A stretch of 61,605 nucleotides of DNA from Vicinamibacteria bacterium (GTDB lineage Bacteria > Acidobacteriota > Vicinamibacteria > Marinacidobacterales > SMYC01). The notes below the pieces were generated by a model that saw only the letters and a program-made list of their open reading frames with translations, was not told the origin of the DNA and did no database searches. Each line of letters begins with the position of its first letter. Position 1 is the stretch's first letter. Positions 46,645-60,766 of this stretch are shown here, one piece after another. Location: assembly GCA_035620555.1 (NCBI GenBank), contig DASPGQ010000226.1, positions 1 through 61,605 on the forward strand, given 5' to 3'. The position numbers were made by a program, and so were the translations under genes.

Positions 46645-49257
46645 TTGAAACTCGCGAGAACCCTCGGCATCCTCGAAGCCGAGGTCGAATTGACGCTCCT
46701 GCTCGGGCTCACCCACTTCCTCGTGGCGGGGGCGCACTCTCTGTTCGACATCGGCGCGACGGCCCTTCTGATCGGCAACCTTGGACCGGATGCTTTGCCC
46801 CAGGTCTATTCGGCCAGCGCGATCGTATTGATCTTTGCGGGCCTCTTCGTGACTCCCCTCGTCGATCGCCTCGACCGTTCCCTGTTTTTCAGCCTGTTGC
46901 TCGCCGGTTCCGCGGCTCTAGTGCTCCTCACCTCGCAGGGCTCCGCCTACCGCGCTCTATACGTCGCGAGCTACCTGATGAAAGGGCTCTTCTTCCTTCA
47001 GTACTGGCTATTCGCGGGAGATCTTCTGGATCTGCGCCAGGCGAAGAGAGTATTCCCGGTGTTGCTCGGCTTCAGTCTCACCGGTGGCCTGGTGGCGAGT
47101 ATGGCCGCGGCGCAGATCCCACGATTTCTTCCCTCGGAGAGCCTGCTCGCTTTCTCCGGAGCCCTGATGGTTGCGGCGATCGTTCCCGTTCAATGGATAT
47201 CCCATCGCTGGCGCCGGCGCTTGCGTTACGCCGGAACGAGATCCCAGAGAGTCCCCTCCCTGGTTCACCGGATCAAGTCCGACATCGATGTCTCGTTCCA
47301 ATCGCCGCTGGTCAGAGCGCTTTCGCTCTACGTGTTTCTTCTCGCGCTGCTCGCTCAGATCCTCGATTTTCTGCTGGGCAAGGCCGCTCACGCCGCCTTC
47401 GCCGCGCCGAGTGGATCCGTTGCCGTCGAGGGACTCGCGAGCTTCTACGCTCTGCTGAACGCCGTGGTCATCGGCGTGGGAGCCCTCGTCCAGTTCTTCA
47501 TCGCCAACCGTCTCATCAACTCCGCGGGCGTCACCCGGGCTCAACTTCTCGCACCCATCACTTTTTTCGTCGTCTTCGCCAGCGCCAGCGTCGTGTGGCT
47601 CGCGGGCGGTGCTTTCTTCTTCACCGTCGTCGCCGCGAGAGCGATCCAGAGAGCATTTCGCATCTCGCTCGTTCGAACGTCGACCGACTTGATCTACAAC
47701 GCGATCCCGGGCGAGCGTCGCGGCCGCGCCAAGGCTTTCAAGGAGACACTCCTCGAGCCACTGGGCGTGCTCGCCGGCGGCCTGTTGCTCATGGCCAGCT
47801 CCGAGCTCCCACTTCAGTACGTTCTCGGCGGGGCGACGGGACTCTCGATCGTTCTCTTCGCCGCCACCGGCAAGCTCAAGGAACACTACATCGCGAGCCT
47901 GGTCCTGGTGCTCAAGGAGAGAAGTCGTTATCGATTCGCTTTTCCTTCGTTCGTCTCGCGGCAGGCCAGAACGCCTGCGGGGAAGACCGGCGTGAGTGGA
48001 CTGCGACGAGCTCTCGATGACGACGAGGCGTCGATCCGGCTCCTGGCCGTGGAAGTCGCCTCGGAGCTCAGAGAGCCGGAGGCCGCAACTCTGCTCGTCG
48101 ACCGGGTTCGCGACGAGCCCGATCCCCAGGTGCGCTCGCGAATGGTCTCGGCACTCGGAAGGATGGTTCGCAACCGCGGAGATCGCGCCGAGAGCGGATC
48201 CGCTACCGAAGTCGACCCCGCGGTGCGCGCCAGCGCCATGGAAACGCTGGCCCGGGACACGCTTCTTGCCGAGATGGGCAGGGAGACAAACGTGTCGCAG
48301 CCTAGCCGGGATAGCGCGCCTCGACGAGTCCTGGAGAACGGTGCGACGAGGAAACGCGCGCTCTTCGCGCTCGCGCGGAGCCAGGAAGAGGGGGCGCTCG
48401 AAAGGCTCGTTCATTACCTCGAGGAAGGCGACGGAGCGACACGACACGTCGCGGCGCGAGCGCTCGAGGGCTGCGGCGAGGCCGCGGTCGGCGTTCTCAC
48501 GCTCGCGCTCTGGAGCTCCGACGTCGAGGCACGCCGTTACGTCATCCGCGCCCTCGATCGAATCGGGACATCGAGCGCGCGCCAAGCGCTCCTGCCGGTT
48601 CTATCTCTGGAGGCGGAAGAGGCCTATTACGAGCTGCTGCGGCTCCAGGCGATTCAACATCTGCCGAGCAACCCCGCACTGGGCCTCCTCGAGGACTCCA
48701 TCGCCCAGAGAGTCCAGCTCGCTCGGGGAAACGCCCACCAGGTACTCAGAGCGGTGTTCATGGGTGAGCCGGGGATGCGTCTGATCCTCAGCAACTTGAA
48801 TCATCCCGACCGCTTCATTCGATCGAGCGCCCTCGAGGCGCTCGAGGTCCGCGTCGACACCGCCCTTCTCGGTGGGGTCTTGCCGCTATTCGAGCACGAC
48901 AGCCCGCGAGCGGTCGCCGAGCAAGGCGCCGAGCTCTTCGATTTCCCTTCGCGCTCCCCTCTCGATGCCCTTCTCGAGCTCACGCGCCATCGCTCGGCCT
49001 GGATTCGAGCGTGCGCCGTCTACGCCGTCGGCCATATGGGAACTCTCGCGTGCCTCGAACGACTCGAACAGCTTACGAGAGACGATTACGAGCTCACGAG
49101 GCTCAACGCCGTCGAAGCGATCGGACGGCTGGGAGACGAAACCAGCCTCCGGTTGCTCGGTCGCCTCGAGACCGGCGGGGACGAGACGATGAAAGCCTAC
49201 ACGCTCGAGGCCATCGAGGCGATCCGTCGCCGGCAGTCGGCACGGTCGGCGGGATAG
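46645..49257 (+). CDS. TLC/Npt-like (ATP:ADP-antiporter-family MFS) membrane domain fused to C-terminal HEAT repeats, paralog 1
   Basis: TTG start. Polytopic N-terminal half with YWLFAGDLLDLRQAKRVFPVLLGFSLTGGLVAS (compare TLC family LFWxFANxxxxxxEAKRxY...G). C-terminal HEAT-like repeats (DPQVRSRMVSALGRM, DVEARRYVIRALDRIG, SAWIRACAVYAVGHMG, TRLNAVEAIGRLGD). Confidence 0.75.
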   Translation: MKLARTLGILEAEVELTLLLGLTHFLVAGAHSLFDIGATALLIGNLGPDALPQVYSASAIVLIFAGLFVTPLVDRLDRSLFFSLLLAGSAALVLLTSQGSAYRALYVASYLMKGLFFLQYWLFAGDLLDLRQAKRVFPVLLGFSLTGGLVASMAAAQIPRFLPSESLLAFSGALMVAAIVPVQWISHRWRRRLRYAGTRSQRVPSLVHRIKSDIDVSFQSPLVRALSLYVFLLALLAQILDFLLGKAAHAAFAAPSGSVAVEGLASFYALLNAVVIGVGALVQFFIANRLINSAGVTRAQLLAPITFFVVFASASVVWLAGGAFFFTVVAARAIQRAFRISLVRTSTDLIYNAIPGERRGRAKAFKETLLEPLGVLAGGLLLMASSELPLQYVLGGATGLSIVLFAATGKLKEHYIASLVLVLKERSRYRFAFPSFVSRQARTPAGKTGVSGLRRALDDDEASIRLLAVEVASELREPEAATLLVDRVRDEPDPQVRSRMVSALGRMVRNRGDRAESGSATEVDPAVRASAMETLARDTLLAEMGRETNVSQPSRDSAPRRVLENGATRKRALFALARSQEEGALERLVHYLEEGDGATRHVAARALEGCGEAAVGVLTLALWSSDVEARRYVIRALDRIGTSSARQALLPVLSLEAEEAYYELLRLQAIQHLPSNPALGLLEDSIAQRVQLARGNAHQVLRAVFMGEPGMRLILSNLNHPDRFIRSSALEALEVRVDTALLGGVLPLFEHDSPRAVAEQGAELFDFPSRSPLDALLELTRHRSAWIRACAVYAVGHMGTLACLERLEQLTRDDYELTRLNAVEAIGRLGDETSLRLLGRLETGGDETMKAYTLEAIEAIRRRQSARSAG

Positions 49258-49261
49258 TTGG

Positions 49262-50008
49262 TTAGGTCTCCTCGAGCTGTCCGGCGACCGCCCTCGCCGC
49301 CTCCGACACCTTCTCGGGATCGCCCAGGTAGTAATGTCGGATCGGCACCAGATCGTCGTTCAGCTCGTATACCAGGGGAACTCCCGTCGGGATGTTCAAC
49401 TCGGCGATCTCGTCATCGGGGACGTGATCGAGGTACTTCACCAGAGCTCTGAGACTGTTGCCGTGAGCCGCGATCAGGACTCTTCGTCCCGATGCGACTT
49501 CGGGGGCGATCGATTTTCGCCAGCACGGGAGGAAGCGCTCGACCGTTTCCTTGAGACTCTCCCCCAGAGGTACCTCGGCGGGCGCCAGAGAGGCATAGCG
49601 AGGGTCGCGGCGGGGATTTCGCGGATCGGACGGATCGAGCGGGGGAGGCGGCGTATCATAGCCTCGCCGCCAGGTCTGGACCTGTTCCAAACCATAGCGC
49701 TTCGCGGTCTCTGCCTTGTTCAAACCCTGGAGAGCTCCGTAGTGGCGCTCGTTCAAACGCCAGCTTCGGTGGACGGGAATCCACATGAGGTCCATCTCGT
49801 CGAGAACGAGCCAGAGCGTCCGTATCGCTCGTTTGAGCACCGAAGTGAACGCCACGTCGAAGAAATAGTCCTGAGCGGCCAGGGTTCGGCCCGCCTCGCG
49901 AGCCTCGGTGACGCCTTTGTCGGTCAGGTCCACATCGGTCCATCCGGTGAAGCGATTGGCTTTGTTCCAGAGACTCTCGCCGTGACGAAGGAGCACGAGT
50001 TTCTTCAT
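49262..50008 (-). CDS. gpmA: 2,3-bisphosphoglycerate-dependent phosphoglycerate mutase
   Basis: ORF trimmed to ATG 50008. [29 protein letters not shown]...[17 protein letters not shown]...[10 protein letters not shown]. Confidence 0.95.
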
Positions 50009-50018
50009 GGCGGCTCGT

Positions 50019-51623
50019 TCATGCCGTCGCCGGCGCGGCGGCACGCACGTCGTCGTCGACGTCCCCGGCAAATCGCTCGAAGTTCTTGTCGAACATGCCC
50101 GCGAGCTTTCTGCCCTGGGCATCGTAGGCATCGGGATCCGACCAGGTCGAGCGGGGATCGAGGATTCCCGGAGGTACATCGGGACAGGATTGCGGGACTT
50201 GGAACCCGAAGATAGGATCGGTGGTGGTCGGGACGGCGTCGAGGGCCCCGCTCAACGCGGCGCGAACGATGGCCCGGGTGTGCGACAGCTTCATTCGGTG
50301 ACCGGAGCCGTAAGCGCCTCCCGTCCAACCGGTGTTCACGAGCCAGGTCACGAGCCGGTGCCGACTCAACCGCTCGCCGAGCATCTTGGAGTAGACCGCG
50401 GGCTTGCGCGACATGAAGGGGGCACCGAAGCAGGCGCTGAAGGTGGCTTGAGGCTCGTCGATACCCCGCTCGGTGCCGGCGACCTTCGCCGTGTAGCCCG
50501 AGAGGAAATGATACATGGCCTGTTGGGGATTGAGCTTCGCGACCGGTGGGAGCACGCCGAACGCGTCGGCTGCCAGCATGAGAACGGTTTTTGGATGCCC
50601 GGCCCAGCCGGTTCTGGAGACGTTGGGAATGTGAGAAACGGGATAGGACGCACGCGTGTTCTCGGTGAAACTGTCGGAGTCGAGGTCGAGCCGCCGGGTC
50701 TTGGTATCGATGACGACGTTCTCGAGGATGGTTCCGAACATTCGGGTGGTGGCGTAGATTTCCGGCTCGCCCTCGGAAGACAGCCGAATGACCTTGGCAT
50801 AGCAACCGCCCTCGAAGTTGAAGACCCCCTGGTCGCTCCATCCATGCTCGTCGTCACCGATGAGGACACGGTCGGGATCGGCGGATAGCGTCGTCTTCCC
50901 CGTCCCCGACAGGCCGAAGAAGATGGCCACGTCGTCCTCGTCCTTGCCGAAGTTGGCGGAACAGTGCATCGGCAGCACGCCGTCGGGAGGGAGCAAGTAG
51001 GTCATGACGGTCAGGATCGACTTCTTGATCTCCCCGGCATAGTCGGTGCCTCCGATGATGACTTCCTTGCGTGCGAAGTTGAGCATGACGAACACTTCCG
51101 AGCGGGTCCCGTCCTCCTCGGGAACGGCCTGGAACCGGGGAGCGCAGATCACGGTGAACTCGGGGACGTGAGACGCGAGCTTGTCGGGGTTCTTCTCGCG
51201 AACGAACATGTTCCTGGCAAACAGGTTGTGCCACGCTCGCGTGTTGATGATCCGAATCGGAATCTTGTAGTCGGGGTGCGTTCCGACATAGCAGTCCTGG
51301 ACGTAGAGATCGCGACCCCTGAGGTACGCGGTCAGCCTGGCTCGCAGTCTGTCGTACTGCGACGTCTCGCAAGGCTTCGCGACGTCCCACCAGATGTGTT
51401 TTTCGCTCCGCGGCTCGCGAACGATGTATTTGTCGTTGGGTGAGCGGCCCGTATATTGGCCGGTATGAACGACGAGAGGGCCCCGGTGAGCGATGAAGCC
51501 CTCGCGGCGCTGAATGGCATGCTCGTAGAGGGCTGCGCTCGAGAGGTTCCACCAGACGGTGGCGTCGAAGATTCCGTGGTTATCGAGTCCGAAACGGCTG
51601 CGAAAAGCTCCCTGTTCCTCCAT
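50019..51623 (-). CDS. pckA: Phosphoenolpyruvate carboxykinase (ATP)
   Basis: [15 protein letters not shown]...[13 protein letters not shown]...LIGDDEHGW...[10 protein letters not shown]. Confidence 0.95.
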
Positions 51624-51703: not shown

Positions 51704-54349
51704 TCATGACGAGGGGGGCACCCGTCGCTCGAGCTCGGAGAACCAGTCGACGACCACGTGAAGCCGCGTGGCCTCGCTCCCCCGATCCGTTTGTACCATG
51801 ATGAACCCGGTGCCGTCTCGCGTTTTGTCGTAGCCCGCATAGGGAGCACCGGCTTCGTCGAAGGGCGCTTCGAACAGCGGGCGTGGCTTTCCCGCCCGAA
51901 ACTCGGGCTCGGTCTCGATCGAAACCACCATCATGGAGTCCTCGTCGCGGTAGAAGAGCTCCTCGCCGTCGCGGCCCCAGACCGGCTCGTGGCCGCCCTC
52001 GGTCGAGATCGGCCCACTACCTTTCAGCTCCCCGGAAGGAAATTCACGCACGTAGATCTCGTCCCTGATGCCGTTCTCGTCGGATACGTATGCCAGGTAC
52101 CGGCCGTCGGGAGAGAACATGGCGGCGCTTTCGTTGAACGGTGTCGCGAGAAAAGGCTCGGTGCGGCCGTTCACCCAAAGGACGACGTCGAACTGAGTGT
52201 CCGGAGACAACTCGGTAAACGCCAGGTGGCGCCCGTCCGGCGACCAGGAATTGGGGAACTGAGGATTGGGACTGGTCGTGAGGCGAACCGCCGGGGACGA
52301 TCCATCGATGGCCTTAGTAAAAAGGTTCACGATCCCATCTGACTCCCGACCGAACGTCATCTCGCGACCGTCGGGCTTCCAGATCGCCCCGCCGCTGTTT
52401 CCTTCGAACGTGACGCGTCTCATCGACCCGCGATGGGTGTCCAAGAGGAAGATATCGGTCGATTCCCCTTCGGTAACCGTCACGAGGAGCTGATCGCCCG
52501 ACGGAGAGAGTCGGGGCACCTGATAGCCGCGCGAGGTGCGGGTCAGGAGGCTGGCGCCGCCGTTGCGATCGATGAGAAGCAGCCGGCCCGAAGCCTCGTT
52601 CGCCCCATCCCCCCCCTCGGGGACGTAGACGAGCGTGCCATCGCTCGCCAAATCGTAGAAAGATGCACCGGTCAGATCGTCGAATCCCACGCCCGAGAGC
52701 ATCTCGATGGCCGCGCCGCGGATCTCGAGTGCCCGCGAATCGAATCGAGCCGCCATCAGGCTCGTCCCCCGGGCGAATACCAGGTGGCCCCTGGGCGAGT
52801 AGCGCGCGTAGGATCCGTCCTCCACGACGACGCGAGTCTCGGTCTCGCCTGACGCCACGACCTCGATTCGAAACCGTCCACCCGGCATGAGGCTGGTAAA
52901 GAGCACGTGTCCATCGGGCAATACGGTGGGCCATCGATGGCTTCGGGTTTCATCCCCGAGGGTGGTAAGACCGACCATTGCGGGATTGCCGGTCCCCATC
53001 GCCGACAACCCCCCCATCGTGAGGGGAGCGAGAACGATCATACTCGAGCCCCAGTTCGCTCCCCGCGGACTCGGAGCGTCGACCAGCGATTCGACCGCGA
53101 ACCCCGAAAGCGACATGCGTTGCAGCTTCCCTTCGGAGAAAAAGCCCAGCGAGTCTCCGTCGGGAGAAAAAAAAGGGCTCGAGGCACCGGTTGTTCCCGG
53201 AAGCGGAGTCGGATCGAGGCGGTCCATCGCCCGCAGGCGCAGCTCGGTCGTCTCGCCACGGCGGGCGGTGTAGACGAGCCGCGTGCCGTCAGGGGACAGC
53301 GCGAGAGGAGAGCCCGCCTCGAGCGCGACGGGCTCGGTCGGCGGAACGTCGATGGTGAAGACGCGCCCGCTTTTCAGCGACCGGACCTGTCCATCCCAGA
53401 CGCGTCCCACTACGAAACCGACGAGCAGACCGGCCGCCGCGAGAGCGAGCGCGGCCCAGATGGGCATTTCGTGCTTGGGGGGCTCGAGCGGGCCTTCGAG
53501 TGCCTCTTCGATCTCGAGCCGTGCGTCTTCGATGTCGTGGAGCCGCCGGTGCAGCTCCTTGCGAAGGCAACGCTGCAGGAGATGGCGAATGTTGCGCGGC
53601 ACCCATGCGGGAAGCGCCCCGAAGTCGGGCTCGGTGGAGATGACCGCGGCGAGAATGTCGGAGCTCGTTTTCCCCTCGAACGGATGCCGCCCCGAAAGAG
53701 CTTCGAAAAAGCATACCCCGAAGGACCAGATATCGGTGCGCTTGTCGAGACTCTGCCCCCGTGCCTGTTCCGGGCTCATGTAAGCGAGCGTTCCGAGAAT
53801 GTCTCCTTCCATCGTCATCCGGTCCGGCGCTGTCACGGTCTTCCCGCTCGGACCGAGCGGGGTCTCGGCCAGAAGCTCTTTGGCCAGGCCGAAATCCAGA
53901 ACTTTCACGAGGCCCTGCGGCGTCACCTTGACATTGGCCGGCTTCAGGTCGCGGTGGATGATTCCTCTCTCGTGCGCGGCGCCCAGCCCGGCGGCTATCT
54001 GGCGAAACAAATCGAGAGCTTCCCGAAGCGGAAGAGGCCCTTGCTGCATCTTCTCGGCGAGAGTCAACCCTTTGACGAGATCGAGGACGAGAAAAAGCAC
54101 ATCGCCGTCCCTCTCGAGTCCGTGGAGAGTACCGATATTGGGATGACTCAGCGAGGCGAGAAGCACCGCCTCACGTTCGAAGCGCGCGACGCGCTGAGGG
54201 TCCCGGGCAAGATCGTCGGGGAGGACCTTGATGGCCACTTCCCGCTTGAGGTGAGTGTCCCGGGCGAGGTAGACCTCGCCCATTCCGCCCGCGCCGAGTG
54301 TATCGAGGATCTCGAACCCGCCGAGACGACTCTTAGGCTCGAGGGGCAC
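51704..54349 (-). CDS. Ser/Thr protein kinase with one TM and a C-terminal TolB-like beta-propeller region
   Basis: GAGGMGEVYLARD...VAIKVL...IIHRDLKPANV...DFGLAK...YMSPEQ. A TM segment (IWAALALAAAGLLVGFVV), then repeated SPDG...F motifs typical of TolB/WD40-like propellers. Confidence 0.9.
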   Translation of the reverse strand: MPLEPKSRLGGFEILDTLGAGGMGEVYLARDTHLKREVAIKVLPDDLARDPQRVARFEREAVLLASLSHPNIGTLHGLERDGDVLFLVLDLVKGLTLAEKMQQGPLPLREALDLFRQIAAGLGAAHERGIIHRDLKPANVKVTPQGLVKVLDFGLAKELLAETPLGPSGKTVTAPDRMTMEGDILGTLAYMSPEQARGQSLDKRTDIWSFGVCFFEALSGRHPFEGKTSSDILAAVISTEPDFGALPAWVPRNIRHLLQRCLRKELHRRLHDIEDARLEIEEALEGPLEPPKHEMPIWAALALAAAGLLVGFVVGRVWDGQVRSLKSGRVFTIDVPPTEPVALEAGSPLALSPDGTRLVYTARRGETTELRLRAMDRLDPTPLPGTTGASSPFFSPDGDSLGFFSEGKLQRMSLSGFAVESLVDAPSPRGANWGSSMIVLAPLTMGGLSAMGTGNPAMVGLTTLGDETRSHRWPTVLPDGHVLFTSLMPGGRFRIEVVASGETETRVVVEDGSYARYSPRGHLVFARGTSLMAARFDSRALEIRGAAIEMLSGVGFDDLTGASFYDLASDGTLVYVPEGGDGANEASGRLLLIDRNGGASLLTRTSRGYQVPRLSPSGDQLLVTVTEGESTDIFLLDTHRGSMRRVTFEGNSGGAIWKPDGREMTFGRESDGIVNLFTKAIDGSSPAVRLTTSPNPQFPNSWSPDGRHLAFTELSPDTQFDVVLWVNGRTEPFLATPFNESAAMFSPDGRYLAYVSDENGIRDEIYVREFPSGELKGSGPISTEGGHEPVWGRDGEELFYRDEDSMMVVSIETEPEFRAGKPRPLFEAPFDEAGAPYAGYDKTRDGTGFIMVQTDRGSEATRLHVVVDWFSELERRVPPSS

Positions 54350-54514: not shown

Positions 54515-55012
54515 GTGATGCGATACTCTCGATTCGTCGTGGCGTTCACGCTCATCGGAGCGACCACGGCCACTGCTCAGACGGTTCGGGTCCGCTGGGA
54601 GCGGACCGTCGACTTCAGTCGATACCAAAGCTATATGTGGATCGAGGGCGCGCGGGCACTCGACGATCAGGCCCATCGCCTCGTCGTCGACAGCACCGAC
54701 GCGACGCTCGCGGTGGCGGGTATCTTCAAGGACGAGTTCGAGCCCGATCTCTACGTCACCTACTACGCTTCCGTGGACGAGAGCTTCCAGATCAGCGGAG
54801 GTTACCGGCGCGACTGGAACGACGCGCGCGCGGTGACGGTCGAGACCCACGCCGCGGGAACGCTCGTCATCGATTTGGTGGATGCCGCCGAGAACCAGCT
54901 CGTCTGGCAGGCTTCCGCCACCGCGGCTCTCACCAATGACATGAAGAAGAACCGCGACAAGGTTCGCGAAGCTTTGAGCAAGATGTTCGCCGACTTTCCC
55001 CCGTCGAACTAA
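54515..55012 (+). CDS. DUF4136 domain exported protein
   Basis: Signal peptide MMRYSRFVVAFTLIGATTATA. ...AAGTLVIDLVDAAENQLVWQASATAAL... matches the DUF4136 pattern as I recall it. Confidence 0.7.
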   Translation: MMRYSRFVVAFTLIGATTATAQTVRVRWERTVDFSRYQSYMWIEGARALDDQAHRLVVDSTDATLAVAGIFKDEFEPDLYVTYYASVDESFQISGGYRRDWNDARAVTVETHAAGTLVIDLVDAAENQLVWQASATAALTNDMKKNRDKVREALSKMFADFPPSN

Positions 55013-55019
55013 CTCGGCC

Positions 55020-56684
55020 TCATTCCATGGGGAATGACGAAGGCTCGGGGCTCTCTCGGTCGATGCCGACGATCGCGTAGCCCGAGCCTTCCGGTCTCAG
55101 ATACACCTGAGCGCTTCGGGCCCAGTGTGGATTGTCGGAGTTGTGAGAGCGAATCGTCGCCACGAGGAAAAGGTCGGGAGAGGAAATCGAAGGAATGGCG
55201 AGGCGGGTGGACGTCTGACGCTCCGGCTCCACCAGGGTTCGGCTCGCGCCGGTTGCGTTGTCGTAGGATGACCAGTCCACTTCGTAGATCGTCTCCGTCT
55301 GCACGAAGCCGTACTTCTCCGACAGATTCGTGAAGGCGAGCCCATCGCCGTCGATGCGAAACTCGTCCAGCGGGTTCAAGGCGTTGATGCCGAATCTGCC
55401 GCACTCGAGCTGCCGCTCGACGAGGACCTCGAGAAAGTAAGCGGCGTCCTCGGGGCGGCTGTACTCTCCGGTCTCGACGATGGCGGAAAGCTCGTCGCGC
55501 GTGAGCTTCATCAGGATCTTTGCGGCCCAGAAGGCGTCCCGGGCAGTCATCCGGACGAAGGCGGGATTGGGGTAGTCGTTGCGCCACTTCACCGGGTCGA
55601 AAAGCTCGGACTCCCAGCGCCCCACCGCCTCGTACTCGGGGAAGGGTGGCCACTTGGCCTTTCGGTACTCGGGAACGTGAAATCCGAAGCCCAACAAGTT
55701 CTTCTTGGCGAGGCGCAGGTCGAGGGAATAGTGGAAGCTCAGGTGGGCATATTGCATATCCACCGAACCGCTTCCGAACGTCGAGCCGAAATCGAGCAGA
55801 AAGTGTCTCACGTAGTGCGTGCCGTCGTCCTCGACGTAACTATCCTGGGTATTGTGGGCGCGGGTGTCGTCGTGGTTGAGCCAGGCGGCAAAGAGGCGGA
55901 GTCCTCGAAGCTCGCGCCGGTCCTCGTGCGGGATAACGTCGTTGGGGTCGTCGCTGCGCATGCCGTAGTAGCGGAATGGCCCGATCGGCTGTCCGGGAAT
56001 GTATTTGCTCGCCAGGACCCGCATCGTCCCGTCGGCAAGCCGCGGCACCCTGCGGATCATGCGGCGAAAACGAAATTCGGTGAGAGCCATCTTGTCACCG
56101 AAGCGGTCCTCGACCTCGGTCCCCGGCGCGATTTTGAAACGGTCAGGATGGACGCGAACGATGTAGTTCTCGGGCACGTTGTAGCCGAGCGCGTGGAAGA
56201 GCTTGGAAGCGATGACTTCCGCCGCGGAGGCGATCTCGGGTACGTCCACCGGGTCGAGCTTGATCACGTAGCGATCGCCGGCACCGTCGCTGATTTCGAA
56301 CCCCGGAGTCAAGCCCTGGCTCTTGCTCCGAAACACGGTCCAGGTCTCTTGGGGATCGGGACCGTTCCCCTGATTGGCTCCCCGCGACAGCTCTTCGACG
56401 CTCAATCGTCTCTCGCCGAGGCGGTTCGTGAACCAGCTGCTGTTCGGCAGCTCGTCGAGCACGTTTACGTTCGCGGCCTCGGATCCGATCGGTGATTCAC
56501 CCCAATCCTTGAACATGTGTCCGAAGCGATCGTACAAATCCGAGAGCGCGATCGCCTCCGGCTGGGTAGGCACGTCGAGCCGATCGTTGTCCACGACCAG
56601 GGGATCGTCGGGAAAGAACTTGGGCTCATGGGCCTCGCCGCGCACCGGCCCGAGGAGAGCGAGAATCAGAACGAGCTCGTTCAT
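55020..56684 (-). CDS. Hypothetical, probably exported protein with a protein-kinase-like (PKL) motif set
   Basis: ORF 55020..56897 trimmed to ATG 56684, 2 nt after the upstream stop. N-terminus MNELVLILALLGPVRGEA. Motifs in kinase order: GDRYVIKLD (beta3 Lys), AAEVIASKLFHALGY (alphaC Glu), LNHDDTRAHN (HxDxxxxN catalytic loop), FLLDFGSTFGSG (DFG). No family name recalled. Confidence 0.6.
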   Translation of the reverse strand: MNELVLILALLGPVRGEAHEPKFFPDDPLVVDNDRLDVPTQPEAIALSDLYDRFGHMFKDWGESPIGSEAANVNVLDELPNSSWFTNRLGERRLSVEELSRGANQGNGPDPQETWTVFRSKSQGLTPGFEISDGAGDRYVIKLDPVDVPEIASAAEVIASKLFHALGYNVPENYIVRVHPDRFKIAPGTEVEDRFGDKMALTEFRFRRMIRRVPRLADGTMRVLASKYIPGQPIGPFRYYGMRSDDPNDVIPHEDRRELRGLRLFAAWLNHDDTRAHNTQDSYVEDDGTHYVRHFLLDFGSTFGSGSVDMQYAHLSFHYSLDLRLAKKNLLGFGFHVPEYRKAKWPPFPEYEAVGRWESELFDPVKWRNDYPNPAFVRMTARDAFWAAKILMKLTRDELSAIVETGEYSRPEDAAYFLEVLVERQLECGRFGINALNPLDEFRIDGDGLAFTNLSEKYGFVQTETIYEVDWSSYDNATGASRTLVEPERQTSTRLAIPSISSPDLFLVATIRSHNSDNPHWARSAQVYLRPEGSGYAIVGIDRESPEPSSFPME

Positions 56685-56686
56685 CG

Positions 56687-57934
56687 TCAGAAACTGGGCC
56701 CGCCGCCTATATGGAAGCGGAACCCCTCCAGGCTGTGGGCGAGGTCGAATCTCAGGACGAATCCCGCTGGGGCGTGGGCTCTGAGACCGAATCCGTAGCC
56801 CGTGTGCATCTTGTCGAAGTTGAAGTCGTCGCTGTCGCGGAAGACTTTGCCGGCGTCGAAGAACAACGTGCAATCGACATAAGGCAAGACCTCCCATCGA
56901 TACTCGGCGCTAACCAGGAGGTTTCGGGTATCTCGGAAACGGTACTCGCGAAAGCCGCGAACGGTCGCGGCACCTCCCATCGTCTCCATGAGATAGAAGG
57001 GCACGCTCTTGCCGCCCGCAGGGAGTGAGTGCGACGAATAGACGCGGAGAGCCAGGATCCGATTGCGATGGCCAAGGGGAACGTAGCCCTTGATGTCGCC
57101 GATCACGCGAGTGAAGTCGTACAGACTCAAACCCGTGTCCTCGTAGTGGAGCCCCGTGACCCGGGCGACGATTCCCACTGGTGGGGACCCCCATTTCTCG
57201 CGGATGTCGAACTCGACCCACCCGCCGGTAACGGAGTACTGAGTTCTCGGATCGCCGAAACCGGGCACTCCCGCGGGGTCGAAGACCTCCTCGAGGGATC
57301 GATCGGCATCGCCCGAGTCGGTTCGCGTCTGGAAGTAGCCCGCCTGAGCCCCGAAGGACAGGAGACCCCGAGGGTTGAGCCAGACATAGGCCGTGCCACC
57401 CTGATCGTTGAGAAGGTAGGTCGAGCGATCGTCCACGCTCGAGTCGTTGCCGAGACCGTAGAACCGAAGGGATGTGAAATCCCGGTACTCGGCGCGGAAC
57501 TTGAGCTCGATGCGTCTGCCCACGTGAGGAGGTGGGACGACGACCTCGGCGTCCGCCATCGTGAAACCCCTCGTCGAGTAGCGCCCGTTGAGCTGGAACT
57601 GGAAGTACTGGTTCTCGAGTCCGTGAACGTAACCGCCTCCGAGGACGAAGCCGGACCCCGAGGGCATGCCTCCGATGACGGGGCGAAAACCTTGCCATCC
57701 CTTGACAAAGATATTCTGGGGGAACTTCGCCTTCTCGAGACCACGCACCCGGGCTTCCAGGGGGGAGATCCGATAGGGCTCGAGCTCTCGCGCCTTCTCC
57801 CGACGCTTCTCGAGGAGTATCTCCTGGCGGCTCTGGGCGGACGACGTGGAAGGAGCAAGGCCGACGACCGAAACCGCACATCCGACCAAGAGAAACAGAC
57901 GCGAAAAGGCACTCGAACCGGCACGGGGGACCAT
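56687..57934 (-). CDS. Omp85/BamA-family outer-membrane beta-barrel without POTRA domains
   Basis: Signal peptide ...LFLLVGCAVSVVGLAPSTSSA. Short helical N-terminal region, then a barrel with the typical tail: GGAATVRGFREYRFRD...LFFDAGKVF...GYGFGLRAHAPAGFVLRFDLAHS...GGGPSF (terminal Phe). Confidence 0.75.
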   Translation of the reverse strand: MVPRAGSSAFSRLFLLVGCAVSVVGLAPSTSSAQSRQEILLEKRREKARELEPYRISPLEARVRGLEKAKFPQNIFVKGWQGFRPVIGGMPSGSGFVLGGGYVHGLENQYFQFQLNGRYSTRGFTMADAEVVVPPPHVGRRIELKFRAEYRDFTSLRFYGLGNDSSVDDRSTYLLNDQGGTAYVWLNPRGLLSFGAQAGYFQTRTDSGDADRSLEEVFDPAGVPGFGDPRTQYSVTGGWVEFDIREKWGSPPVGIVARVTGLHYEDTGLSLYDFTRVIGDIKGYVPLGHRNRILALRVYSSHSLPAGGKSVPFYLMETMGGAATVRGFREYRFRDTRNLLVSAEYRWEVLPYVDCTLFFDAGKVFRDSDDFNFDKMHTGYGFGLRAHAPAGFVLRFDLAHSLEGFRFHIGGGPSF

Positions 57935-57997
57935 AAGGGCGGGGGATCATAACATGCCTGGAAGTCTCATCGAGAACCTGATAACAAGAAGCGCTTC

Positions 57998-60766
57998 ATG
58001 CCTTTCTTGCGACTCGTGAACGTCCACCCCGGTGAGGGTCGTCGTGTCTTCGGGATGTTTGCCCTTCTCGGGCTCATCATCGCCACGAGCTACATCTTGA
58101 AGCCGGTTCGGAGCTCTGTTTTTCTGAGCCAGTTCGGCGCCGAGAGACTTCCCTACGTCTATCTCCTGGTAGCCCTGGTGCTCGGATTCGTCGCCGCGGG
58201 GTTCGCCAGGCTTTCCTCGCGCACGAACGTGGTTCGGCTCTTCGTCGGTGCCGCGGCGTTGTTCGCTTCCCACATCGTCCTGTTCTGGATCGCCCTCGTG
58301 ATGGATTGGATTTGGACGGGATTCGTCTTCTACGTCTGGGTGAGCATCTTTACGGCGCTCATGCCGTCACTGTTTTGGCTCCTCGCGAACTACGTCTTCT
58401 ACTCCAACGAGGGCCGACGCCTGTTTCCGGTGGTCATGGCGGGAGGGCTGCTCGGTTCCATTGCCGGCGGGGCGCTCACGTCGCTCCTCGTACCCGTCGT
58501 GGGAACATCCGGATTACTTCTTTCCGCGGCCGGTCTCCTGATCCTCGTCGCGTTCCTCGTTCGCTGGAACGTGGCCCGAGAGGCGGAGCGCATCACCGAG
58601 CGTCGCTTCGACCTCGCTCGGAGCGAGCGAAGCCACGCCGTCTCGGATGAATCGAGTCCCCTGGCGCTCGTCGCCCGGTCGCGCTACCTCAGACTCCTCG
58701 CCGCCCTCATCGTGCTTGCGACTCTGGTCTCCACGCTGGTCGACTACCAGTTCAACGTTGCCGCCGAGGACAGCTTCCCGACCCGAGACGCGCTCACTCG
58801 GTTCTTCGGAACGTTCTTCGCAGGGATCAACGTCGTGGCTTTCGCACTCCAGCTGCTCGTGGCAGGACGACTGCTCGGGCGGTTCGGGGTCGCCGCCGGT
58901 CTCGTTCTGCTACCCGCGGCTCTGCTCGGGAGCTCCTTGTTTCTTTTCGCCATGCCGTCGCTTGTGAGTGCCGCGCTCGTCAAGGCCTCCGATGACGGTC
59001 TCAGCAACTCGGTGAATCGGGCAAGTGTGGAGATCTTGTATCTGCCCGTCTCCCTGGCGTTGAAGAATCGGCTCAAGGCGTGGCTCGACATGTTCGTCGA
59101 GCGCGTCAGCCGCGGCCTGGGTGGCCTCACCTTGCTGGCCGCGACGACCCTGCTGTCGATGCCGCCAACTCAGATCGGGCTCCTCGTCGCTTTCCTGACC
59201 GTTCCCTGGCTCGTTCTCGTCGTGTGGTTGAACCGCGAGTACGTGAACACCTTTCGTGACTCCATCGCGCGACGAGACATCACCGACCTCACGGCGCACC
59301 TGACCGACCCCGCGAGTCTGTCCGTTTTCCAACAGGTCCTCGCGGGCGACGATACCCGGGAGATCCTGTACGCTCTCGAGCTTCTCGCCGGAACCGAGGA
59401 TGAGCTGCTGCTGCGACAGGCGGCGAGCTTGACGGATCATCCGAGCGCGGAAATCCGAAGAGCCGCATTCCGGCTGCTGCGCGGGGCGGCGGCTTCGCCG
59501 ATCGACCAGCTGGAACGCCGCGTCCTGGACGAAGAGCCACGGGTGGCGGCCGAGGCATTTGCGCTCTTCCTTCGCGTCGATCCCGACGGCGCCAATCGTA
59601 CGCTCGACTTCGTGATCGAGCGAAACGACGTCGAGAGAATCCGGGCAGTACTCGATTGTCTCGAGCAGTCGGAGACGACCCTTTCCGACCTCGTGCTCGA
59701 GCGCATCGTTCGCGACCGCGTGTACGATGAGACGGCCGGGGCGCGAATGCTGGCAGCACAAGCCCTCGGATTCTTGACGACGCCGCCCGACGCGCTCCCG
59801 AGCTGGCTGGTGAGATTACTGGGCGACCCGGACATCGAAGTCGCGCGCCGCGCCGCCCGCAGCGCCGGCCGGTTGCGCGTCACCGAGGCTTTCCCTGCAC
59901 TGGTCGAGCAGCTTCGCCGGCCTCCGCTCCGGGTCGAGGCGCGACGGGCTCTCGCTAGGTACGGGCCCGAGGCTCTCGACGGGCTCTCGGGTTTGCTTCG
60001 GGACGACACTCAGGAAATCGATCTTCGCCGGGCCATTCCTCAGGCGGTCGCGGAGATCGACGGGCAGGACGGAGTCGAGGTGCTGTTCGACATCCTCCCT
60101 CAGGACGATCAGCGCCTCCATTATCAAGCCATCAAAGGACTTTCCAAGCTTCGATCGCGCAATCCCACCTTGCGCTTCCCCCGTACCGAGGTCGAGCGCC
60201 TCGTCGAGCACGAGCGGGCCGCGCTCCTCGATCTCGCGCGCCTCACGGCGTCGATTCGCCGTTACCCGCCCGAAGAGGGCACGAGCCATGCGCTCCTGCT
60301 CCTCGTCCTCGACGAGCGCATCGAGTTCACCCGAGAACGGATCTTTCGCCTCCTCGGTCTTCAGTATGCCCAAGGCGAGATCGCGAGCGTCTTCAACCGC
60401 CTGGCGCACGCGCGACCGGCGATCCGCTCCGCCGCGCTCGAGTACCTCGCCAATCTGCTGTCGAAGAGCCATCGACGCAGCCTGTTGCCTCTGCTCGAGG
60501 CGGAGAGCTCACCTTCGATCTACCGGCACGGCCTCGAGCTCACGGGGGTTCGTGCTCCCGCGTTTGCCGAAGCATTGGGGCGACTCGCGCTCTCCACCGA
60601 CGACTGGCTCGCGGCATGCGCCATCACTGTGGCGGGTGACAAGGGCCTGGCGGCGAGCCTCCCCGGGCTCGAGGAGCTACGGGAGCACAAGTCGCCTCGG
60701 GTTCGCGAGGCGGTGAAGCATGCCGTGAAGCCCGCTTTGGGCTCACGCGGCCCGGGTCGGCCTTGA
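57998..60766 (+). CDS. TLC/Npt-like (ATP:ADP-antiporter-family MFS) membrane domain fused to C-terminal HEAT repeats, paralog 2
   Basis: FYVWVSIFTALMPSLFWLLANYVFYSNEGRRLFPVVMAGGLLGSIAGG (TLC-type signature region). About 11-12 TM helices. C-terminal HEAT-like repeats (SAEIRRAAFRLL, DIEVARRAARSAGRL, RPAIRSAALEYLANL, SPRVREAVKHAV). Confidence 0.75.
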   Translation: MPFLRLVNVHPGEGRRVFGMFALLGLIIATSYILKPVRSSVFLSQFGAERLPYVYLLVALVLGFVAAGFARLSSRTNVVRLFVGAAALFASHIVLFWIALVMDWIWTGFVFYVWVSIFTALMPSLFWLLANYVFYSNEGRRLFPVVMAGGLLGSIAGGALTSLLVPVVGTSGLLLSAAGLLILVAFLVRWNVAREAERITERRFDLARSERSHAVSDESSPLALVARSRYLRLLAALIVLATLVSTLVDYQFNVAAEDSFPTRDALTRFFGTFFAGINVVAFALQLLVAGRLLGRFGVAAGLVLLPAALLGSSLFLFAMPSLVSAALVKASDDGLSNSVNRASVEILYLPVSLALKNRLKAWLDMFVERVSRGLGGLTLLAATTLLSMPPTQIGLLVAFLTVPWLVLVVWLNREYVNTFRDSIARRDITDLTAHLTDPASLSVFQQVLAGDDTREILYALELLAGTEDELLLRQAASLTDHPSAEIRRAAFRLLRGAAASPIDQLERRVLDEEPRVAAEAFALFLRVDPDGANRTLDFVIERNDVERIRAVLDCLEQSETTLSDLVLERIVRDRVYDETAGARMLAAQALGFLTTPPDALPSWLVRLLGDPDIEVARRAARSAGRLRVTEAFPALVEQLRRPPLRVEARRALARYGPEALDGLSGLLRDDTQEIDLRRAIPQAVAEIDGQDGVEVLFDILPQDDQRLHYQAIKGLSKLRSRNPTLRFPRTEVERLVEHERAALLDLARLTASIRRYPPEEGTSHALLLLVLDERIEFTRERIFRLLGLQYAQGEIASVFNRLAHARPAIRSAALEYLANLLSKSHRRSLLPLLEAESSPSIYRHGLELTGVRAPAFAEALGRLALSTDDWLAACAITVAGDKGLAASLPGLEELREHKSPRVREAVKHAVKPALGSRGPGRP

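Follow-up and report, generated by a model that had tools for sequence, protein, structure and literature searches.

Conserved pairing of a POTRA-less Omp85 barrel with a predicted exported kinase-like protein, and linkage of the pair to NTT/TLC-type transporter genes

What could a protein with a full set of protein-kinase motifs do beyond the inner membrane, where ATP is not expected? The question is raised by a two-gene locus in a metagenome-assembled genome of Vicinamibacteria (Acidobacteriota), on contig DASPGQ010000226.1; the whole stretch of 61,605 nucleotides that we analysed is called the window here. A preliminary description of this locus had reported a gene for an Omp85-like barrel without POTRA repeats, followed by a gene for an apparently exported protein with kinase motifs, and had suggested two-partner-style export or surface display. 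We found that the two genes stay together across at least seven phyla, that the second one encodes a predicted kinase-fold protein of a new family, and that genes for NTT/TLC-type antiporters recur near the pair. The genes on which the argument rests are as follows.

55020..56684, minus strand: protein-kinase-like (PKL) gene, 554 aa, of an unnamed family; open reading frame (ORF) read from an internal ATG at 56684
56687..57934, minus strand: Omp85 barrel gene, 415 aa, from the ORF list, ending in TGA
57935..57997, no strand assigned: 63-nt intergenic region between the divergent barrel and NTT-HEAT genes
57998..60766, plus strand: NTT-HEAT gene, 922 aa, with an NTT/TLC domain and HEAT repeats, divergent from the barrel gene

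The ORF list and the junction sequence (...ttc TGA cg ATG aac...) bore out the two-gene arrangement, with 2 nt (cg) between the barrel stop codon and the PKL ATG. A longer PKL ORF (55020..56897, minus strand, 625 aa) would overlap the barrel gene by 211 nt. We rejected this reading as a high-GC artefact, because the homologues begin where the internal ATG at 56684 lies. Translation located all four motifs quoted in the preliminary description (GDRYVIKLD, AAEVIASKL, HDDTRAHN and LLDFGSTFG) at the places given there, and as an observation that description was correct in every detail. The 63-nt intergenic region is presumably a control region shared by the barrel and NTT-HEAT genes; a promoter and terminator scan found no sigma-70 consensus in it, a result that is uninformative for Acidobacteriota. 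The surroundings of the pair in the window have a GC content of 62% and contain long shadow ORFs in several frames, such as the 625-aa PKL reading and a 531-aa ORF opposite the Ser/Thr kinase gene described below; these are artefacts that mislead naive gene calling and clustering.

To describe the pairing, we used two sets of loci. Set 1 comprised 80 loci from species-representative genomes of the window's clade (Acidobacteriota, Eiseniibacteriota and Myxococcota). Set 2 comprised 80 metagenome loci of a sister clade with lipoprotein-type PKL members; it was found with a narrower alignment (A5), used in place of a 46-sequence alignment (A4) that was too diverse to seed the locus scan. Neighbour counts rest on tblastn and hidden Markov model (HMM) detection; single-linkage ORF clustering was dropped, since it merged true genes with shadow ORFs, and greedy gene picking was noisy. 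A barrel gene lay immediately upstream of the PKL gene, on the same strand, in 67 of the 69 set 1 loci with enough upstream sequence (64/69 by HMM) and in 51/51 loci of set 2. The pair was thus present in 118 of the 120 loci with sufficient upstream sequence, in otherwise unrelated surroundings and in at least seven phyla (Acidobacteriota, Eiseniibacteriota, Myxococcota, Zixibacteria, Calditrichota, Krumholzibacteriota and Latescibacterota). Distant representatives that were looked up one by one, two pseudokinase-like members among them, showed the same pairing. The preliminary description had asked for co-occurrence in related genomes; the pairing is near-exceptionless and reaches well beyond Acidobacteriota. 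The distance from the barrel stop codon to the conserved motif of the mature PKL domain had a median of 95 nt, which therefore leaves space for a leader and almost no spacer. These results indicated that the barrel and PKL genes are the core of a conserved module.

Some genomes carried two barrel-kinase pairs side by side. A second, divergent copy (31-41% identity) of barrel and kinase was found in some Vicinamibacterales (L020, 3-1448; L041, 3171-6071, inverted), which indicates duplication and divergence of the module. At L019, a second kinase-like gene (4085-5560) stood beside the first copy. We found no literature that joins an Omp85 protein with a kinase-like protein, and none of relevance on periplasmic kinases; a 2026 preprint on new PKL families in oral bacteria concerns other families, none of which has an Omp85 partner.

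The first partner was readily classified. The barrel protein matched Pfam Omp85 (PF01103) over residues 140-402 with 52.7 bits (cut-off 24), and PF01103 was found in 119 of the 120 barrel homologues listed, whose lengths were 393-468 aa. An AlphaFold model based on 53 homologues (pLDDT 81.9) showed 16 strands with three short helices before them.

57836..57934, minus strand: predicted signal peptide of the barrel protein, about residues 1-33, visible as a leader in the AlphaFold model
Residues 36-78 of the barrel protein: three short predicted periplasmic helices (36-50, 58-68 and 71-78), AlphaFold model
Residues 83-413 of the barrel protein: predicted 16-stranded barrel domain, AlphaFold model

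Only these helices stood between the leader and strand 1, and the model contained no POTRA or other N-terminal periplasmic domain. The Pfam score and the model together upheld the earlier assignment as a POTRA-less Omp85-type barrel. Its Foldseek neighbours were BamA and TamA barrels (E ~1e-13, TM 0.53-0.61), and FhaC was missing among the best 50 matches. The Pfam ShlB/FhaC match was sub-threshold (16.6 bits against a cut-off of 22.7, E 0.0056) and covered the last strands; NCBIfam BamA/TamA models matched weakly. The lid-lock motifs of Omp85 proteins, (V/I)RG(F/Y) in L6 and FxDxG on beta-13 (PMC11358297; PMC4490367), were present as TVRGF (R326) and FFDAG (F358, D360, G362), with all four residues invariant in the 53 homologues. 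Judged from the model, the barrel is of the 'noNterm' Omp85 type, the function of which is poorly understood (PMC4104836; PMC11358297). No Pfam match to DUF5982 was found in it at E <= 0.1, and it would therefore belong to a different noNterm subgroup from that of Leptospira and Cytophagales.

The second partner is known to NCBI as a "hypothetical protein" (100% identity). One search returned at least 5,366 homologues; the family has no Pfam domain, and all named members are 'hypothetical'. At 50% identity it comprised 3,169 representatives, 845 of them below E 1e-30. For the PKL protein, every Pfam and NCBIfam model stayed below threshold, in agreement with the earlier statement that it could not be placed in a named family; in the HMM searches, then, the barrel passed the Omp85 model and the PKL protein passed no kinase model. 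PDB sequences gave no usable match, either for the protein or for a profile of 62 sequences.

An AlphaFold model based on 62 homologues (pLDDT 82.6, pTM 0.86) predicted that a conserved, extended N-terminal segment leads into a bilobal core and that a beta-sandwich forms the C-terminus; N-lobe strands lay at residues 115-143, a helix at 151-166 and further helices at 257-269 and 323-433. Three Foldseek matches in the PDB had E <= 0.001, and all were Fam20C (prob 0.98). The weaker PDB matches were mostly kinases (further Fam20C entries, Rio2, alpha-kinase, APH and PI3K-like), and a PI3K/PI4K-domain protein and several Ser/Thr kinases were among the matches in the viral library. The parts of the PKL protein, all on the minus strand, are listed below; the motif residues are read from the translation, and the core boundaries from model secondary structure, conservation and translation.

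56619..56684: leader MNELVLILALLGPVRGEA, with HEPK after it; hydrophobic and variable, ending before the conserved KF(Y/F)PDDP
56355..56618: mature N-terminal segment KFYPDDP...NVNTLDEVPDSSWFTNR, residues 23-110; highly conserved, mostly without secondary structure in the model (pLDDT 65-93)
55380..56351: predicted kinase-like core, about residues 112-435
56259..56261: K142 in GDRYVIKLD (VIK, N-lobe)
Residue E156 in AAEVIASKL: on an alphaC-like helix
55905..55928: basic helix PHEDRRELRGLR (H253, R256, R257, R260), invariant
55851..55874: catalytic loop H271-D272-D273-T-R-A-H-N278 (HDDTRAHN)
55785..55793: DFG, residues 298-300 (LLDFGSTFG)
55056..55370: C-terminal beta-sandwich, about residues 439-543; all-beta, pLDDT 87-97, with weak local Foldseek matches to fibronectin-III-like receptor domains (ranks 44 and 48)

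The catalytic motifs landed on the expected elements of the predicted kinase fold. Among the 62 homologues (57-92% identity), K142, H271, D272, D273, N278, D298 and G300 were invariant, and E156 and F299 were conserved at 90% or more. In 46 more distant representatives (32-56% identity), the lysine was kept in 39/46, Glu or Asp at the E156 position in 37/46, D273 in 41/46, N278 in 42/46 and D298 in 44/46; the four basic-helix residues were conserved in 46/46, more strictly than the catalytic lysine. The K/D/N/D set was intact at ~140/165 loci. A minority is pseudokinase-like, having lost the catalytic Lys, Asp or DFG (L083, 8001-9608, P0206; P0259; L087; L088; L082), and an Omp85 gene still stood directly upstream of P0206, P0259 and L082. 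The catalytic loop, a beta-hairpin and DFG follow one another in the PKL protein as they do in HipA-like kinases. HipA_2 (PF20613) and HipA_C (PF07804) gave the only recurrent profile matches, sub-threshold and in 9 and 6 of the 46 members, respectively; the window PKL protein reached 17 bits over the N-lobe only, against a cut-off of 27. PADLOC returned no defence-system match for the barrel, PKL or NTT-HEAT proteins. Both the motif set and the kinase-like structure proposed earlier were thus supported by residue conservation in close and distant homologues and by the predicted structure. We take the PKL protein to have a kinase fold, to be probably catalytically competent and to represent a new family; since the K/E/HxD..N/DFG set is kept at ~85% of loci, down to ~33% identity, catalysis is likely in most members.

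Where would this enzyme act? We assessed export signals from the hydrophobicity of the N-termini and from lipoboxes. A leader was called hydrophobic when a 10-mer with a Kyte-Doolittle value of at least 1.8 occurred in the ~25 residues before the conserved motif; a lipobox was defined as [LVI][ASTVI][GAS]C at the leader end. A hydrophobic 10-mer preceded the mature N-terminus in 97% of 150 PKL members. The leaders were otherwise unconserved in sequence and typically ended in ..EA|Q. The leader of the window protein contains no cysteine and thus no lipobox. Lipoboxes were found in at least 39 of 144 representatives of other clades (for example LAITAGC|ASS and LTLVGC|GHS), and 14 of the 16 members of alignment A5 had one, as read off their N-termini; by NCBI names, this lipoprotein sister clade contains Zixibacteria, Calditrichota, Krumholzibacteriota and Latescibacterota. 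The family alternates between Sec-type and lipoprotein leaders and should therefore be extracytoplasmic. The export that the hydrophobic N-terminus of the window protein had suggested earlier is matched by export signals across the family, in these two forms. From these N-termini, the PKL protein is predicted to be exported, with a Sec-type leader in the window's clade and as a lipoprotein in the sister clade.

An exported kinase would need a phosphoryl donor, and the gene divergent from the barrel gene offers a candidate source. The NTT-HEAT protein matched Pfam TLC (PF03219; TC 2.A.12) with 54.3 bits (cut-off 21) and HEAT_2 with 5e-16; its match to the NCBIfam NTP/NDP exchange transporter was sub-threshold. 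Residues 98-416 aligned to residues 141-495 of the solved 'ADP,ATP carrier protein 1' (9j3n, E 2.5e-6), and the protein also aligned to chloroplast NTT1 (9j3j, E 3.3e-4). At other loci, TLC scores were 88 bits for the operon member at L149, 50.6 bits at L048 and 31.9 bits for the NTT-HEAT protein at L072. An NTT-like gene lay within 8 kb of the PKL gene in 31 of 54 fully flanked loci of the window's clade and in 19 of 21 of the lipoprotein clade; near intact PKL genes it was present at 47 of 70 fully flanked loci, and none turned up beside the few catalytically degenerate examples, a sample too small for a comparison with intact members (3 informative loci). By simple arithmetic, a family with 10 copies per 5-Mb genome would fall in a 16-kb span in only ~3% of cases. 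At least four arrangements were seen.

NTT-barrel-kinase operon: L034, L048, L072
NTT upstream, divergent: the window, L001, L067
Barrel-kinase-NTT(-NTT-HEAT-cNBD) operon with gaps of 2-50 nt: L108, L149, L155
NTT downstream, convergent: many Vicinamibacterales

Because the linkage recurs in different arrangements, it points to function rather than to inherited synteny. A cNMP_binding gene followed the NTT-HEAT gene at L081, L128 and ~10 other loci, an NTT-HEAT(-cNBD) arrangement that has been described before (PMC5381601). NTT-HEAT fusions are monophyletic, occur in free-living bacteria and have no assigned function (Major et al. 2017, PMC5381601). The NTTs characterised to date are all importers, found in parasites or plastids (PMC5381601). 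NTT-type carriers work by exchange, and in cyanobacteria challenged with ADP from outside they can release ATP from the cell (PMC11632070). The literature that we found on NTT-HEAT proteins contained no functional work and no mention of an association with Omp85 and an exported kinase. We propose that the NTT-HEAT protein is an ATP/ADP exchanger for the exported kinase, where both the nucleotide and the direction of transport are our inference. The preliminary description had objected that an enzyme in the periplasm should find no ATP there; genes near the pair, which it had missed, offer a candidate answer.

The window contains only two NTT-like genes, both within ~6 kb of the pair. The other one is the following.

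46645..49257, plus strand: second MFS/NTT-like protein with HEAT repeats (HEAT_2 1.8e-23), a divergent paralogue that lies ~6 kb away from the barrel and PKL genes

Compared with NTT domains from the window and from other loci, its N-terminal domain shows 23-31% identity (23% to the NTT-HEAT protein at 57998..60766); it is only a possible further member of the system.

Among the other neighbours, genes for exported Metallophos (calcineurin-like) phosphoesterases stood beside the PKL gene at ~22/160 loci, 15 in the lipoprotein clade and 7 in that of the window. They carry a leader or a lipobox, are most similar to purple acid and tartrate-resistant acid phosphatases (TRAP), and lie directly beside the kinase gene in the two clades in differing orientations (L096, 9011-10258; L140, 9669-10820; L149, 14279-15457; L047, 5377-6534; ~18 other loci). 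A triple-BON protein (OsmY-like, envelope- or lipid-associated) was encoded convergently, just downstream of the kinase gene, at L015 (3344-4180, minus strand) and 11 other Vicinamibacterales loci. At one locus (L108, 5323-6516, plus strand), a gene for a PAP2-superfamily lipid phosphatase preceded the barrel-kinase-NTT-HEAT operon, which hints at a lipid substrate. Signalling genes recurred upstream of the barrel gene in the lipoprotein clade (L081, 1-8000; L089, 1931-6667; L091, L103 and L137); they encoded a cNMP-binding protein after NTT-HEAT, a PAS histidine kinase, a response regulator-SpoIIE phosphatase fusion and a single-domain response regulator, and they suggest that the module is regulated. 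Neighbours of these kinds would suit a phosphorylation in the envelope that is both regulated and reversible.

We propose the following mechanism. The 16-stranded noNterm barrel, which lacks a periplasmic POTRA arm, would be made together with a catalytically competent kinase-fold enzyme, remotely HipA-like and Fam20-like, from a translationally coupled second gene. The enzyme would be exported by Sec, to be soluble in the periplasm in the window's clade and a lipoprotein in the sister clade, and would serve the barrel, next to it or on it, as a functional arm with a gene of its own. Because the periplasm lacks ATP, supply by an antiporter is proposed: an inner-membrane NTT/TLC antiporter, here NTT-HEAT, would swap cytoplasmic ATP for periplasmic ADP. 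With this ATP, the kinase could phosphorylate a protein, lipid or glycan of the envelope, and in some lineages an exported purple-acid-phosphatase-like enzyme may reverse the modification. The chain as a whole, from a Sec-exported kinase at a POTRA-less barrel to ATP from an NTT exchanger and an opposing phosphatase, has in our estimate a chance just short of even. We put forward more tentatively its generalisation to periplasmic ATP-dependent phosphorylation in diderm bacteria of multiple phyla, with an NTT(-HEAT) antiporter that exports ATP for ADP and is gated on the cytoplasmic side by HEAT and cNMP-binding modules, a barrel-docked kinase that modifies a substrate in the outer membrane or envelope, and a reversing phosphatase; it is possible, and we lean against it.

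Several observations weigh against the proposed chain. The superposition of the PKL model on Fam20C was weak (E 3e-4, TM 0.20-0.26, rmsd 13-15 Å), and no sequence profile tied the PKL family to any kinase family above threshold. The leader of the window PKL protein is short and has no basic n-region. About a third of the loci had no NTT gene within 8 kb (23/70 fully flanked loci with an intact PKL gene), and the upstream members at L034 and L072 scored only as MFS or not at all. The window contains no purple-acid-phosphatase-like gene. ATP could also leak from the periplasm through porins.

Four other explanations have to be set against this chain. The barrel might translocate the kinase-fold protein to the surface, the medium or other cells, as in two-partner-like secretion or display. 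The order of the two genes and their close coupling recall TpsB/TpsA and other systems of an Omp85 protein with a passenger, the Sec leader and the long conserved unstructured segment at residues 23-110 could engage the barrel, and the weak ShlB/FhaC match lies in the last barrel strands. However, TpsB proteins use POTRA domains for cargo recognition and this barrel has none, the PKL protein has no TPS/Haemagg_act domain, and the ShlB score is below its cut-off, with BamA/TamA and not FhaC as the closest structures. Two-partner export is therefore without specific support. Moreover, ~500 residues that fold into a kinase and a beta-sandwich would need to pass the outer membrane in unfolded form, an enzyme outside the cell would leave the strong linkage to a nucleotide antiporter of the inner membrane without explanation, and a whole clade of lipoproteins fits an anchored envelope factor, though surface lipoproteins exist. 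Of the export route suggested in the preliminary description, the extracytoplasmic location and the coupling to the barrel are supported, and the two-partner mechanism is not; we consider it unlikely, and docking to the barrel, by a partner that is periplasmic or a lipoprotein, is no less likely than translocation. The hydrophobic leader might also be no export signal at all, so that a cytoplasmic kinase would lie by inherited synteny next to an unrelated outer-membrane protein. The short leader of the window protein would suit this explanation, but in 97% of members the hydrophobic character is kept while the sequence varies, other clades have unmistakable lipoboxes, and the pairing at 118/120 loci spans at least seven phyla with unrelated surroundings. 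We regard this possibility as extremely improbable.

The remaining two explanations accept an extracytoplasmic protein and differ on what it does. It could be a structural subunit of an Omp85 machine, like BamB-E or TamB, whose residues serve sensing, AMPylation or another donor, so that no ATP is needed. This would account for the persistence of the pairing when K142, D273 or DFG is lost (P0206, P0259), for a basic helix more conserved than the catalytic lysine, for lipoproteins in one clade, as among BAM accessory proteins, and for lipid-related neighbours (the BON-domain protein at 12 loci and PAP2 at one). Against it, the full K/E/HxD..N/DFG set is kept at ~85% of loci across phyla, and the NTT linkage and exported phosphatases better match a phosphoryl-transfer cycle; we judge a purely structural role quite unlikely. 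Lastly, the module could scavenge nucleotides or phosphate: the NTT protein would import, and phosphatase and kinase would act on nucleotides or organophosphates taken in from outside the cell via the barrel. All components are extracytoplasmic or membrane-bound, and purple-acid-phosphatase-type enzymes are classical phosphate scavengers. The import function of all characterised NTTs also speaks for it. Yet the kinase would still need a phosphoryl donor beyond the cytoplasm, Omp85 barrels have no known role in the passage of solutes and the lid-lock motifs of closed barrels are kept in this one, the phosphatase is found at only ~22/160 loci and not in the window, and Pho-regulon or nuclease genes do not recur around the pairs. 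Scavenging is very unlikely in our view.

Other genes near the pair in the window were considered as partners and set aside.

49262..50179, minus strand: His_Phos_1 ORF, a GpmA-type phosphoglycerate mutase; the listed start adds a spurious 56-aa extension
50019..51623, minus strand: ATP-dependent phosphoenolpyruvate (PEP) carboxykinase, next to the GpmA-type gene
51704..54349, minus strand: Hanks-type Ser/Thr kinase of 881 aa, fused to a PD40/TolB-like beta-propeller (Pkinase 3e-46)
54515..55012, plus strand: DUF4136 protein with a leader, convergent on the PKL gene, with 7 nt between the stop codons

In the 881-aa protein, the two parts are joined by a hydrophobic segment that, from its sequence, looks transmembrane; the layout is the classical one of a kinase in the cytoplasm and a sensor in the periplasm. 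We rejected this protein as a partner, as its adjacency to the pair is not conserved. The DUF4136 gene was rejected likewise; it is kept only in L001 and L011 and is therefore probably unrelated. The His_Phos_1 gene was rejected as a periplasmic phosphatase partner, being of the GpmA type and syntenic with the PEP carboxykinase gene only in 8-9 close relatives.

The linkage now joins three families of unassigned function, namely the exported kinase-fold family (more than 3,000 clusters at 50% identity), the noNterm Omp85 proteins and NTT-HEAT, and it yields a concrete, testable hypothesis for each of them. It bears on the textbook assumption that there is no ATP past the inner membrane and that outer-membrane processes are powered from the cytoplasmic side. 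If the proposed chain is true, it would constitute a new mode of energising and regulating the Gram-negative envelope and a striking convergence with the eukaryotic secretory-pathway kinases. Its generalisation, if true, would be a bacterial counterpart of that eukaryotic system, overturn the view of a periplasm devoid of ATP-driven enzymes and provide first functions for NTT-HEAT and noNterm Omp85 proteins. If the pairing alone holds, it would add a new kind of Omp85 partner.

Compared with known systems, TpsB/TpsA (FhaC/FHA) and type Vd PlpD likewise combine an Omp85 barrel with an exported enzyme or adhesin, encoded beside it or fused to it; the window barrel differs in having no POTRA domain, a partner without a TPS domain, a sub-threshold ShlB score and a structure nearer to BamA/TamA. 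BAM (BamA with BamB-E) and TAM (TamA with TamB) include the best structural matches of the barrel and have separately encoded periplasmic or lipoprotein partners as well, whereas the window barrel has no POTRA arm and its kinase-fold partner is unlike any BAM or TAM subunit. To our knowledge, these machines do not use periplasmic ATP. The described noNterm Omp85 proteins (Heinz & Lithgow 2014, PMC4104836; Leptospira paralogues, PMC11358297) share with the window barrel the 16 strands, the lid-lock motifs and a short stub. The members from Leptospira and Cytophagales have DUF5982 and neighbours that are DUF1566 or Big-domain lipoproteins, unlike the window barrel, and its stub of three conserved helices is unlike those of described members. 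The word 'kinase' is absent from the Leptospira paper (PMC11358297), which describes no kinase-fold partner. The transporter resembles the NTT-HEAT clade (PMC5381601) in passing the TLC cut-off, in its C-terminal HEAT repeats and, at other loci, in the cNMP-binding protein encoded next to it; in contrast to the import by characterised NTTs into parasites or plastids, we propose ATP out and ADP in across the inner membrane of a free-living bacterium.

For the PKL protein, HipA-like kinases (the PI3/4-kinase-like branch) are closest by sequence, with all scores below the cut-off of 27 bits. They are cytoplasmic toxins of toxin-antitoxin pairs, and have no leader, barrel partner or beta-sandwich. 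CotH spore-coat kinases are atypical bacterial kinases and remote Fam20 relatives that act on extracytoplasmic structural proteins. They work in the mother-cell cytoplasm, where ATP is present, and have no barrel or NTT partner; CotH (PF08757) had no match in the window PKL protein or in the 46 members. Fam20C, the Golgi casein kinase (PDB 4KQA and 5YH0), is the best structural match of the PKL model, and it too has an atypical kinase fold and acts beyond the cytosol, which it leaves by a Sec-type route. Fam20C (PF06702) had no match at E <= 1 in the 46 PKL members. The PKL protein has a single cysteine and so none of the typical Fam20 disulfides; it is also bacterial, coupled to an Omp85 barrel and extended by a C-terminal beta-sandwich. 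It is a member of neither Fam20 nor HipA by any criterion that we applied, and the resemblance to Fam20 is best read as an analogy in logic, not as family membership. What is new is a kinase-like family in a three-part genomic module, with matches to Omp85, to the noNterm type and to TLC and not to the Fam20, HipA or TpsB sequence families. The closest logic is that of the eukaryotic secretory pathway, with Fam20C, a lumenal ATP exchanger and a TRAP phosphatase. There, Fam20C receives ATP through a membrane nucleotide exchanger and is opposed by secreted purple-acid/TRAP-type phosphatases, and such an enzyme is encoded beside the PKL gene in some lineages.

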